Source of the DNA: a virus
Lineage: Duplodnaviria; Heunggongvirae; Uroviricota; Caudoviricetes
Virus record (IMG/VR): IMGVR_UViG_2523533514_000007
Length of the DNA: 61,195 nucleotides
Reading direction: 5' to 3' (one strand)
Shown: positions 51,001-61,195 of the stretch, one piece after another
Layout of the letters: each line of letters starts with the position of its first letter
How positions within the stretch are numbered: position 1 is the stretch's first letter
Position numbers: made by a program

Positions 51001-54000
51001 TGGCGGCCAACTGGTGGCAGCGTAAGGGGGCAATATGGGATACGGTTTACTGGATATTGCAAATCAGTCGCGGCGTGAGGCATTACAGGGAATAAGTGAC
51101 GCAGACAGACGACGTGAAGAAATTGAGGCTGCGAACAAACAGATGGCGGCGCAACAGAAAGCGCAGAACAAGCAGAATATCGGTACGGGCATTGGTACGG
51201 GGGCGGCTATTGGCGCATCCGTTGGTGGTCCTGTTGGTGCTGTTGCTGGAGCAGTAATTGGCGGCATTGCTGGTTCTTTGTTTTAAGGAGTGGTGAATGA
51301 GCGGATTTGCACAGGGGTTACTTGCCGGATTCAGCACCGTTGACCAGGCAATGACCCGTCGTAAGGAGCTTGGTCTGCGTGAAGCACAGCTTGCCCGGCA
51401 ACAGAAAAATAACGAGCGCGATTTTGAGTTTGCGCAGTCTCAGTTTGAACATAATAAAAACGTTGATCAGCGGAACTTTGATTACAGAGCCAAAGTTGAC
51501 GACCGTAATTATGCACTGAAGGAAAGGGAGTTTAACGCTAACCAGAATTACCGGAATGCGTCACTGGGTATGGAGCAGCAGCGACTCCAGTTGCAGAAAT
51601 ACAACCAGCGACGGCTTGAGTATAACGATATGATTGCCCATAGCCAGCCACTAATGGAAGCGCTTGGAAAAGCAATTGAGGCTGGCGATCAGGAGGCTGC
51701 AACGCGTCTGTTCGGGCAGCTGCCAAAGGGACATCCATTAATTCTTATGTCAAACGAAGGCTATGCAGCGAAAGCGGGTCAGGCCGTGATCAACCTGCAA
51801 AAAATCTTTGGTGATAAGCCGGACATGGCGATCGATTCGCTGAATACCCCGGAAAATCTCGATGTGCTTTCCGGCGTGTTTGCCCCGGAACTACAACAGC
51901 GTATTGGCATGCCTGATTCAACCGGGGAAAAAACGATAAAAGAGGCCAGGATTGGCAGTATCGTACCAGCGCAGCAGGAAGGGTACGTACTTATTGGCCT
52001 TGATCTCACATACAGCGATGGCTCCACCGCGCATAAACCTGTAACAGAATACGGCAGTGCGCACCCTGATGATCAAACCGTGCTGGCGATACCCGTTGAT
52101 AAGGCTATCGCTCAGGTCAGGGATCGCAGCAAATTTGCAGAGATATCGAAAAATTATGGTTATTTTATGCCGAAGCAGCAGGGACTTTCTCTGAAAGAGC
52201 TTCAGAAGGGGGCCAGCAACGTAGCGGCGGACGCGATCAAGAATGGCGGTAATGCTCAGGCTGCGGTGGATGAATATTATGCTGCGACTGGTTCACAACC
52301 GCATCAACAGAAAATTCAGCAACAAAAACTTCAGCAACAGGTTATCAACTGGGCGGGAGATGATCCTGATAAGCTGTCATTTGCCAGAAATGTAGCGGCC
52401 CGTCAGCCTGAAATGCTGGAACCTCAGAATCAGAAATTGCTGGAGAACGGGTATGCGAATTTTCTCCGTATTCAAAAGGCCAGGGGGGAACAGGCCAGAG
52501 ATGAAAGTGCTTCATCTGCATCTCAGTTTATCCGTGGACTGAAACAGAATTACGCCCAGTAATTCACGATATTCCATTAATACCATTTCCTGATGCCCGG
52601 CCATTGTGCCGGGTTTTTTTATGGAGTCTGTATGGCCTATTCAGAGGAACAGCGTCCTGAGGCGCAACTCGGTAACCAGAATCGTAACAGCCTGAACATT
52701 CAGCAACCCGGCGAAACTGACAGCTATGAAGCATTTTTCTCTGATCCGAATCGCTGGAAGGATAACAGTACGTCGTTCAGCCTGGGCGATGTATTGCCAA
52801 CAATGGGTAAAGGTTTCGCCCAGTCCGTCCGGGGAACAGGGGAAATGGCCCGTGGACTCGGTGATGCGATGATTCAGAGCCCGGTAAAAACAGGGGCGCG
52901 TATTTTAAATGAGTTTAGCCGTATGGGGCTGCCGGGTGTCGCAACTGTGCAGGATATTTTTGCCGGTGGCAGCAGGGGGGCTGATGAGGTCATCGATACC
53001 CTGCCTGATGGCAAAAACGCGGTTACTGATACTGTCGGTAAAGGTCTGAAGGCAACCGGTAAGGCTGTCAGTGATGGTGCCAAAGCCACTGATGAATGGC
53101 TGACCGGTAAGATGTCGCCGGGTGCAGTTCGTGCGCTGAATACGCCGATGACCGAAGGCTATAATGATTCTGCGGTCTGGGTGGCGAAGGGTGTAAACCT
53201 GATTGGTGCGCTTGTACCTGATATGGTTGCTGGCGGTGTGGCTAGAAAGGTGGGTGATGTCACACTGCGAAAAATGCTGACCGCCGGGCTGGAGAAAAAA
53301 TACATCGCGGCAGGGATGCAGCCGGAAAGAGCCACGGCACTGGCAGCAGAAGCTGTCGATAAAAAAATGCCGGATTTATTCCAGGCGGGCCTGATCACCC
53401 ATTCCACTGTAAGTGCACAGGGGCAGAGTGCAATGGCGGCAGCAGATGCTGTTCTTAATGCTGATTACTCTGAGCTGGCGCAGTCACCGAAATTTCAGCA
53501 GACGTTTTTGTCCATTGACGCCGACCCGCAGCACGCACAGCTTACTGATCGCCAGAAAATGGATCTGGCAAAAGAGCGTGTTGCCGATGAGGTGCGCGCG
53601 CAGCTGGCAACCGATCCTGAATTGCTGGCTGTGAATGCCATGGCGGCAAAACTGGGTGACGCACAACTGTTTAATCTGGTGACACGAGGCACAGCGAAGA
53701 CCGTTAAAAGCGGCATTGTCAGAAATGCCACTGCACAGGGGGCGATTAATGCGGCGCAGGGCGGCTATTCACGCTATCAGGAAAACACGGCATTGCGTGA
53801 GACCGCCGGAATGGATGTATCGCCATGGGAGGGCGTGGCTGACGCAACGATCGAAGGTGCTGCCCTTGGTGCTGCGATGGGGGCTCCATTCGGTGCGGTT
53901 GCCGGATATCGTGGCAGACGTCAGGCCGCAGAAGAAACCGCCATGCGTGATGCTGAAACCGTGCAGCAGGACGACGCAGCCCCGCAACCAGAATCTGTTG

Positions 54001-60000: not shown

Positions 60001-61195
60001 GTTATCTGCTTGGCTCGCTTAACCGCAGTGTTGCGGGGGAGGATGATGACGGGGTTAACTGGTATGACAAGGTGCCGTCTCATGTGAAAGAGCGTAACCT
60101 CGTCATTATGAAATCGGTGTTCGGGGGCAAGGCCGGAGAGTACTGGAGTATTCCTCTGCCTTACGGGTACAACGTTTTCTTCCTGCTCGGGCATACCTCT
60201 GAAGGTGTGGCTGCTGGTGACCTGACGGCGTCCCGTGCTGCCGGTAATGTTGTCGGTGGTATCCTGGGGGCATTCAGCCCGATTGGCAGTGAGACGTCGG
60301 AAACGCTGTCCGGGGCATTGCTGAAAAATGCAGCACCGACCATTCTGCGTCCGTTTGCGAATCTTGCCATGAACGAAAACTTCATGGGGGCGCAGATTTA
60401 CCAGGAGAACATGCCGTTTGGTACACCAAAACCTGACAGCCAGCTGGGAAGACGTTCAACGCCAGAAGCGTACAAGGCGTTTGCATCCTGGCTGAATGCG
60501 TTCTCAGGTGGCAGCCAGTACCGTTCAGGCGCGGTGGATATCACACCGGAATCGCTGAAATACTGGGTGGACTATATCTCTGGTGGTACAGGGCGCTTCA
60601 TTTCCAAAACCACGGATGCGGCGGTGAAATCGCTGAACGGTATTGATATACCGGAACAGCAGGTGCCTTTCCTGGGGAAAATTTCAGGTGAGGTGATGCC
60701 GTATGTTGACCAGCAGAAGATGTACGACCGGATGACAGAGGTTGCGCAGTATCACGCAGAGCTGAAGAGTCTGACCGGCGCAGAAAGAACGGCGTTCATT
60801 GACGAGAACAACGGAAAATTGTCGATGAACGGGCTTATGCAGGATACCCGGAAGAGACTGAAGGATTTGCGTAAACAGCGTGATGCCATTTACGCCGACA
60901 GTACTCTCAGTCTGGCGCAACAGTCGGCGATGGTGAAATCGGTAGAGCGGGATATGAAAATTGCCGTGGATCGGTTTAACCGCGAGTACAACAAAAAAGT
61001 GGGAGTGGATTAACAGAAATGGCCCCGTACGGAAGTGCGGGGCTAATGTGATTGGGGAGGGTGAGGATACCTGACACATCAGAGGTGGCGAGGGATTCCT
61101 CCCTTGCAGAGGTCTTTCTTCGTTATCAGTGCCGTCACAATGACGGTAATACAGAGATGAGCAGGGTGATTAACATCGCCTTTTGCTGCTTTCAT

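Follow-up and report, generated by a model that had tools for sequence, protein, structure and literature searches.

Domain map of a giant, cysteine-free polyvalent protein of short-tailed Shiga toxin phages, with two predicted zincin metallopeptidases

The DNA analysed here is a stretch of 61,195 nucleotides from a tailed virus (IMG/VR record IMGVR_UViG_2523533514_000007), called the window below, which belongs to a 933W/P13374-type Shiga toxin (Stx) phage of the Sepvirinae. An open reading frame (ORF) scan of the window gave 52593..61013 as the longest reading frame on the + strand, uninterrupted over its whole length, and the giant protein encoded there is the subject of this study. An earlier note had placed a single ORF at 52632-61013, just past a terminator and at the end of the virion gene block, and had proposed a giant injected polyvalent protein with two HExxH motifs. 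The uninterrupted ORF and the hairpin with its T-run were confirmed and so was the location, the gene being last on the + strand within the late region of P13374 and, in a prophage record, some 120 bp away from the insertion duplication. A second possible start, the ATG at 52593, is found inside the hairpin. Because the first 13 codons of the longer version overlap the hairpin and a GGAG precedes 52632, the latter start is more plausible. Database starts differ, P13374 ORF78 having the longer one and Stx2-86 gp35 the short one. The features of the locus are listed below, with residues counted from 52632.

52595..52621, + strand: terminator-like hairpin and run of seven T, separating the upstream 421-aa gene from the giant ORF
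52623..52634, + strand: ribosome-binding site GGAG (52623-52626, read from the sequence), 5 nt before the ATG at 52632
52632..61013, + strand: giant ORF, 2,793 aa, stop at 61011-61013; equals Sp5 ORF80/ECs1242, phi24B gp47 and P13374 ORF78
52632..53951, + strand: Ala/Gly-rich N-terminal domain (aa 1-440), by composition, with a Gly-zipper-like stretch at aa 402-425
53952..55748, + strand: low-complexity acidic/Gln/Pro-rich linker (aa 441-1039), order-promoting residues 12-26% per window
55782..56231, + strand: LPD5 (PF18799), aa 1051-1200, Pfam E=8e-45
56175..56951, + strand: CLCA_X-type zincin (aa 1182-1440) including LPD1 (aa 1361-1440), from NCBIfam NF041907 and Pfam LPD1
56481..56495, + strand: first HExxH motif, H1284-E-W-F-H1288, then D1291; ALAHEWFHSLDN
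57039..57671, + strand: M2 zincin (aa 1470-1680), a predicted metallopeptidase of the N4 virion RNA polymerase type with lethal-factor-like fold, without Pfam model
57282..57299, + strand: second HExxH motif, H1551-E-I-I-H1555-H1556; KLRHEIIHHAMEH
57450..57452, + strand: E1607 in an AEExxAxxAE helix, invariant, aligned with the Glu of the N4 'NEF' motif
57879..58148, + strand: MuF-C/PBECR domain (PF18819), aa 1750-1839, Pfam E=1.4e-17
58215..61004, + strand: C-terminal module (C-module, aa 1862-2791) including LPD38 (aa 2476-2681), Pfam LPD38 E=6e-48
51297..52562, + strand: upstream partner gene, 421 aa, no Cys, equal to Sp5 ORF79/ECs1241 and kept beside the giant gene

The giant gene showed 99.5% nucleotide identity to P13374 ORF78 and to TL-2011c, P13374 being the Stx2a phage of the 2011 O104:H4 outbreak. 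It was found at 80% or more of its length in 186 phage records with 90-99.5% nucleotide identity, all of them Stx-converting phages or close relatives. The genes of Sp5 (ORF80), 933W, VT2-Sakai, P13374 (ORF78) and phi24B (gp47) are the same gene, with 95-99.5% nucleotide identity and the same position and length. There is no material difference in sequence between them, but the published annotations diverge from the present domain map. In Sp5, ORF80/ECs1242 (2,793 aa) was among nine newly identified essential genes and was required for plaques and for lysogenisation; its deletion gave normal-looking DNA-filled heads that were not bound by tail-fibre antibody, and the authors suggested an AAA+ ATPase in tail assembly on the basis of a COG1483 match (PMC5155283). 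The phi24B protein gp47 was detected by mass spectrometry in purified virions, where it was described as abundant, but was not visible in the cryo-EM map; it was proposed to act in ejection and to digest peptidoglycan with its 'MuF-C metallopeptidase' (bioRxiv 10.64898/2026.04.10.717836). The literature thus already covers the gene, its being essential, the presence of its product in virions and the assignment to the polyvalent proteins (PMC5155283; bioRxiv 10.64898/2026.04.10.717836). What is new is a corrected and completed domain map with two zincins, one of which has no Pfam model and is tied to phage N4. A shortening of HExxxH to HExxH, the order of M2 followed by C-module, a hot spot of variation in LPD5, the exclusion of cysteine and a C-module without solved relative are also new.

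Four Pfam families matched the protein above their gathering scores: LPD5 (8e-45), LPD1 (1e-23), MuF_C (1.4e-17) and LPD38 (6e-48). All four belong to the catalogue of phage and plasmid 'polyvalent proteins', in which LPD5 is listed as 'potentially enzymatic' and a metallopeptidase (MPTase) is described as hub domain (Iyer 2017, PMC5512222). The present protein resembles those proteins in carrying LPD5, LPD1, MuF-C/PBECR and LPD38, several disparate catalogued domains, in one polypeptide together with metallopeptidase domains, and in being encoded in the late virion block. It departs from the catalogue in three respects: LPD1 is part of a CLCA_X zincin, the second peptidase is without Pfam model, and the order from M2 to C-module was worked out here.

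Both HExxH motifs were located exactly where the earlier note had put them, at aa 1284 (nt 56481-56495) and aa 1551 (nt 57282-57296), outside every Pfam match. Given the His and Glu content of the protein, 0.037 such motifs are expected and two were observed (Poisson P ~7e-4). By their conservation in homologues, neither is a chance occurrence. The first motif lies in a region (aa 1182-1437) that matched the CLCA_X model NF041907 with E=8e-44 over profile positions 3-245 of 250. The string LAHEW[FW]HxxD was present in all homologues (90/90), down to 45% identity, and an alignment of 32 diverse members gave H1263, E1265, H1284, E1285, W1286, H1288, D1291, D1362, Y1369, E1375, R1379 and E1382 as CLCA_X invariants. 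The motif is followed by an Asp, as CLCA_X requires (HEWFHSLD). On the profile match, Pfam LPD1 is the C-terminal part of this zincin domain. CLCA_X was described as the sister group of the CLCA N-terminal metalloprotease, occurring mainly on phages and plasmids and often within very long proteins (Lenart 2013, PMC3650047). The domain shares with that family the HExxH with its Asp, the phage/plasmid habitat and the very long proteins, and protease activity is predicted; it differs in its HExxHxxD spacing, where HExxHxxxD was written by Lenart 2013 (PMC3650047).

LPD5 and CLCA_X travel together and also form standalone proteins of about 480 aa. One such standalone gene, at 8001-9701 of a metagenome contig, has an H-NS-like gene, PcfJ and a SNF2-like helicase of more than 1,700 aa as neighbours. 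The layout on this contig is reminiscent of the leading regions of conjugative elements. The neighbourhoods of the standalone genes look mobile-element-like, a context that is suggestive of a cytoplasmic role. Comparison with the sequences of the PDB gave no meaningful match for the LPD5+CLCA_X profile, for the C-module profile or for the whole giant protein.

The second motif lies in M2, a region for which no Pfam or PDB sequence match was found. No MPTase model (PF18818, which we take to be the MPTase-PolyVal model) was among the Pfam matches, whether the query was the whole protein, a segment of it or one of 34 M2 members; the only recurrent weak match in M2 was Peptidase_M76, in 7 of the 34 members (best E 0.026). 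An exhaustive HMMER search recovered a family of 370 cluster representatives, most of them proteins of 2,000-6,000 aa and a few of them standalone proteins of 210-270 aa. E1552, H1555 and E1607 are invariant in this family and H1551 nearly so; E1607 is predicted to serve as third metal ligand. The consensus of the family reads RHExxxH[HY]GL, and in the clade of Stx phages and Salmonella the motif is one residue shorter, which gives HExxHH. In M49 dipeptidyl-peptidase III, active enzymes occur with HEXXGH as well as with HEXXH, so the deletion in the Stx clade need not inactivate the M2 site. M2 itself was not assigned to M49, the combination of HEXXGH and EEXXAE within the two-lobe fold of dipeptidyl-peptidase III not being found.

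The predicted fold of M2 is that of a zincin, nearest to anthrax lethal factor and the Pro-Pro endopeptidases (PPEP), with a mixed beta-sheet, an active-site helix bearing the HExxH and a helix with the Glu ligand. Its solved fold relatives are mostly protein endopeptidases. The top fold matches include the catalytically inactive N-terminal domains of lethal factor, edema factor (EF) and Certhrax, whereas M2 retains the catalytic residues. Most M2 members also differ from lethal factor and PPEP in being HExxxH-spaced, and membership of M34/ATLF was rejected for want of any sequence-level match. When CLCA_X and M2 profiles were compared, the strand and the HExxH helix did align; a common ancestry of the two domains beyond the zincin fold was not supported by this weak match (E=0.005, 7% probability).

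The HExxH region of the virion RNA polymerase (vRNAP) of phage N4, aa 2130-2448, had been linked to lethal factor before (Iyer 2017, PMC5512222). An hhalign comparison of M2 with an alignment of nine N4-like C-terminal regions matched N4 aa ~2145-2387 with 85% probability and E=6.3e-6, the HExxH and the Glu being in register. A reversed-sequence control gave E=0.36, and a plain HMM search missed the match. On this profile comparison we class M2 with the N4-type metallopeptidases of polyvalent proteins and regard it as a homologue of the peptidase region in N4 vRNAP. The two proteins are alike in being giant cysteine-free virion proteins with an N-terminal region, a central enzyme, an HExxH peptidase and a C-terminal region, in this order; the N-terminal region of N4 vRNAP serves injection and its C-terminal region is needed for encapsidation (Iyer 2017, PMC5512222). 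N4 gp50 differs in having an RNA polymerase domain, of which there is none here, and in its N- and C-terminal regions, which are undetectably related: homology to the N-terminal region or the C-module was rejected by a negative phmmer score and empty HMM searches. A PHROG match of the N-terminal domain to N4 vRNAP was weak (E=0.004) and the pairwise comparison with N4 not significant. N4 belongs to the Schitoviridae and the present phage to the Sepvirinae.

Between M2 and the C-module lies the MuF-C/PBECR domain, which belongs to a family assigned to the RNase fold (Iyer 2017, PMC5512222). The PBECR active site combines a first-helix His with a Ser/Thr from strand 4. H1752 and S1816 were each found in 98% of the homologues below 80% identity and would be these catalytic positions. 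MuF-C is a predicted metal-independent RNase, not a metallopeptidase, and the peptidoglycan argument of the phi24B preprint would thus rest on a mislabelled domain.

The C-module is a single unit of 930 aa, mostly helical, with homologues that cover 90-100% of it at 32-77% identity. Its AlphaFold model reached a pLDDT of 84 and a pTM of 0.80. Elsewhere its N-terminal partners are methyltransferase, ART, InPase, LPD3, GGDEF, transglycosylase and RelA/SpoT domains. It terminates the giant 'DarB-like' proteins of Bcep22 and DC1 and the giant proteins of GP4-like Ralstonia phages, and is also present in about 100 Vibrio phages, in Bacillus phage Page and in a Methanosarcina virus. The homologue in the Methanosarcina virus MetMV (MK170447.1, 40102-42492) shows 28% identity over 89% (E=5e-80), and by this match the host range of the C-module is unexpectedly wide. 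Most matches to the fold in a library of predicted viral structures were final pieces of giant phage proteins stored in fragments, among them the polyvalent protein of PTXU04 (E=7.6e-24), a protein that is essential by CRISPRi-ART. No solved structural relative of the C-module was found. Homology to the known podovirus ejection proteins (P22 gp7/16/20 and T7 gp14/15/16) was rejected by sequence and by fold. The giant proteins Bcep22 gp75, JC1 gp69 and their GP4-like counterparts have the C-module in common with the present protein (26-28% identity over 83-98% of it), and they too stand last in the virion block and are virion-associated. JC1 gp69, a 4,515-aa protein of a Bcep22-type Burkholderia phage, is virion-associated and bears the C-module, and the portal, capsid and head-closure proteins of JC1 are reportedly homologous to their 933W counterparts. 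The annotated cargo of these proteins is different: lytic transglycosylase, helicase or methylase instead of LPD5-CLCA_X and PBECR.

M2-containing representatives were scanned with local HMMs for LPD5, CLCA_X, M2 and C-module. Among the commonest tabulated arrangements, M2 was N-terminal to the C-module in 56 out of 56 proteins carrying both, often directly abutting it, and M2 was sometimes tandemly duplicated. The order LPD5-CLCA_X-M2, with or without the C-module, was found in more than 20 proteins. The giant protein of Vibrio phage D458 (3,066 aa) has the N-terminal domain, M2 and the C-module in common with the present protein and a methyltransferase-like middle. In terms of domain order, the giant protein is a constant unit (N-terminal domain, then M2 with C-module) with exchangeable cargo. 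The alleles of five Stx phages vary little in M2 and the C-module (3.8% and 3.4% variable columns, the lowest values), while LPD5 is the most variable domain with 35%. A hot spot at aa 800-1200 (55029-56231), which includes LPD5, has 32-44% variable columns among the five alleles, compared with 2-5% in M2 and the C-module, and is compatible with allele recombination or with diversifying selection on a host-facing part.

The N-terminus is Ala/Gly-rich as the earlier note had it, with 25-33% A+G in aa 101-500. A word-based homologue search with the N-terminal 480 aa found only relatives from E. coli and Salmonella, at 59% identity or more; tblastn against phages then brought up giant proteins from Vibrio phages that share aa ~160-410 (29% identity, E=3e-19). 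The linker at aa 441-1039 gave no family match and is probably disordered, judging from its composition. Hydrophobic segments towards the C-terminus had also been noted. These exist as mild Gly-zipper-like stretches, the highest hydropathies of the protein being at aa 181-199 (1.38), 402-425, 2443-2467 (1.22) and 2531-2554, but they do not score as transmembrane segments: no 19-residue window of the whole protein reaches a Kyte-Doolittle value of 1.4, and there is no classical transmembrane helix.

The protein contains no cysteine in 2,793 aa, compared with a share of 1.25% in the remaining + strand ORFs that are 150 aa or longer and lie from 17 kb onward (P ~6e-16). Cysteine is likewise absent from 98 of 110 giant relatives, which have 23 Cys in 304,584 residues when pooled, from the D458 giant protein (9364-18561; 0 of 3,066) and from N4 gp50 (14524-25026, - strand; 0 of 3,500). 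We know of no description of cysteine exclusion for polyvalent or ejection proteins. It may reflect selection for unfolded passage through a narrow channel and the oxidising periplasm. Four other late ORFs are without Cys as well, at 36853-37860 (335 aa), 45986-47254 (422 aa), 49920-50576 (218 aa) and 51297-52562 (421 aa, each length counted from the first ATG), and their neighbours have 1-14. The products of these four, too, may exit the virion or be exposed to the periplasm.

Taken together, we favour, with moderate confidence, the reading that this is the giant internal virion protein of short-tailed Stx phages of the 933W/Sp5/phi24B type, a polyvalent protein packaged in the capsid and ejected from it. 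A giant polyvalent virion protein, as the earlier note had proposed, is supported by the four Pfam domains, by gp47 in phi24B virions and by the virion association of the C-module relatives in JC1. The two findings that were to count against that proposal, absence from virions and non-conserved HExxH motifs, did not come about, gp47 being present in phi24B virions and both motifs being conserved within zincin domains. The proposed bundle of peptidase and transglycosylase held for the peptidase, with two predicted zincins, and failed for the transglycosylase, as no transglycosylase or lysozyme domain appeared in the Pfam scans. A dispensable anti-defence accessory was ruled out by the Sp5 homologue, which is essential for plaques and lysogenisation.

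In the mechanism that we propose, the conserved ends would be the Ala/Gly-rich N-terminal domain and the C-terminal M2 zinc metallopeptidase with the 930-aa LPD38 module. The cargo of the clade would be LPD5 fused to the CLCA_X zincin, and the RNase-like PBECR/MuF-C domain, which forms an insertion separating M2 from the C-module. The protein would be incorporated in the head, probably directed by its C-terminal end by analogy with N4 vRNAP, and would be needed for a stable portal/tail vertex. At infection it would leave through the tail, presumably largely unfolded, which the family-wide lack of cysteine fits, and would help to bridge the cell envelope. The zincins would then cut the polyprotein, host proteins or both, freeing the protease and RNase cargo in the cell, where the RNase-like domain would act on RNA. 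Ejection, self-processing, the timing of proteolysis, its substrates and the site of action are all inferred.

Several points weigh against this reading. The CLCA_X score of 150 bits is below the NCBI curated whole-protein cut-off of 260, and the link between N4 and M2 is moderate (85% probability), with nine sequences in the N4 alignment. N4 vRNAP is reportedly packaged unprocessed (Iyer 2017, PMC5512222), so that a peptidase in such a position need not act before ejection. The C-module showed no detectable relation to the C-terminal domain of N4 vRNAP (hhalign E=0.13), and its role in encapsidation is therefore drawn by analogy and not by homology; nor was it detectably related to any solved ejection protein. 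Finally, the phenotype of the Sp5 deletion would fit a purely morphogenetic role as well.

A broader proposal is more tentative, and we hold it to be rather doubtful: M2 and the C-module would form a universal packaging-and-ejection unit, kept free of cysteine for unfolded threading, whose zincin, once inside the cell, frees the LPD5-CLCA_X protease and the PBECR RNase as cargo directed at host targets. If true, a very large set of podoviruses would use the unit, namely Stx, Bcep22-like, GP4-like and Vibrio phages, PTXU04 and even a Methanosarcina virus, and the C-module would represent a class of ejection proteins or portal plugs as yet without structural characterisation.

Among the other explanations, the one proposed in the phi24B preprint survives best, although we consider it unlikely as a whole. 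Here the protein is an envelope-breaching trans-periplasmic conduit with a peptidoglycan-degrading metallopeptidase. It agrees with the presence of gp47 in virions and its absence from the cryo-EM map and with the Gly-zipper-like segments at aa 402-425 and 2443-2554, and related giant proteins bear lytic transglycosylase domains, which places wall breaching in the repertoire of the family. The conduit half of the idea is compatible with the ejected polyvalent protein that we favour. The peptidoglycan half meets the predicted RNase fold of the 'MuF-C metallopeptidase', whereas the real peptidases are the CLCA_X and lethal-factor/N4 zincins, with solved fold relatives that are mostly protein endopeptidases and not members of the cell-wall peptidase or lysozyme families known to cut peptidoglycan. 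The standalone LPD5+CLCA_X genes near PcfJ, SNF2-like helicase and H-NS genes suggest a role in the cytoplasm, and the hydrophobicity required of a classical transmembrane helix is reached nowhere in the protein.

An anti-restriction protein that shields incoming DNA from host restriction, like DarB of phage P1, is improbable. The PHROG 'DarB-like antirestriction' profile does match aa 2351-2681 (E=1e-27), and the C-module is common to the Bcep22, DC1 and RPZH6 proteins annotated as DarB-like, but the match is confined to the LPD38-containing C-module and includes no enzymatic part. Helicase and methyltransferase domains were absent from the Pfam and NCBIfam results, as was a Walker A motif from the protein, and the PADLOC anti-phage defence families gave no match. 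The giant gene is moreover essential in the hosts used for Sp5, whereas P1 darB is dispensable on non-restricting hosts.

The 2016 interpretation for Sp5, a tail-assembly factor outside the virion or an AAA+ ATPase, is very improbable. It was drawn from the COG1483 match and accounts for the full heads of the deletion mutant that tail-fibre antibody does not bind, but the whole protein contains no Walker A sequence [AG]xxxxGK[ST], Pfam and NCBIfam scans returned no P-loop family, and the phi24B homologue is present in purified virions. The published annotations differ from the domain map in three places: there is no AAA+ signature, MuF-C has an RNase fold and is not a metallopeptidase, and the two zincins were previously undescribed. 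The phi24B preprint omits the peptidase domains at aa 1182-1440 and 1470-1680 (bioRxiv 10.64898/2026.04.10.717836). That the HExxH motifs arose by chance, as could be thought of a short motif in a long protein, is refuted by their being invariant or nearly so in distant homologues, by the low number expected and by the assignment of both domains to the zincins along independent routes.

The upstream 421-aa gene appears to be a partner of the giant gene. Deletion of ORF79/ECs1241 in Sp5 likewise abolishes binding of the tail-fibre antibody (PMC5155283). D458 has a homologue directly upstream of its giant gene (E=4e-12), and in JC1 a 510-aa virion protein occupies the matching position. The hairpin between the two genes has a stem (52595-52614) of 7 pairs, 6 of them G-C, and a loop of 6, followed by TTTTTTT. 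It stands in front of the largest late gene, within what is presumed to be a single late transcript. Late transcription in Stx phages is Q-antiterminated, so read-through of the hairpin at 52595..52621 is expected; the hairpin could restrict expression of the giant gene when Q is absent. Between the tail-fibre genes and the pair of 421-aa and giant genes, the P13374 record annotates genes of the moron type. They comprise a MokW-like host-killing peptide, Lom and a membrane protein (window ~49.2 kb and 47553-48995), P13374 ORF72 (record 48587-48727) corresponding to window ~49.2 kb. In the phi24B record three antisense 'genes', vb_24B_50c, 51c and 52c (3205-3528, 5680-6060 and 6411-6782, - strand), are annotated within the giant ORF, their equivalents being antisense ORFs inside 52632-61013 of the window, and the phi191 and AP005153 records divide the giant gene into 8-19 'hypothetical proteins'. 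Both the antisense genes and these splits look like annotation artefacts.

Enterohaemorrhagic E. coli, the O104:H4 outbreak strain included, owes the spread of its Shiga toxin genes to short-tailed Stx phages. Their giant protein accounts for 14% of the genome; it is essential and occurs in the virion, and its published annotations are partly wrong. The additions to the domain map are useful leads more than surprises, and the absence of cysteine and a C-module without solved relative are small concrete leads for structural work on ejection proteins. The map also offers targets for mutation, namely the zincin sites E1285 and E1552, the predicted RNase residues H1752 and S1816 and the unit of M2 and C-module, and it separates the parts that are likely required for assembly from the cargo that is likely directed at the host.

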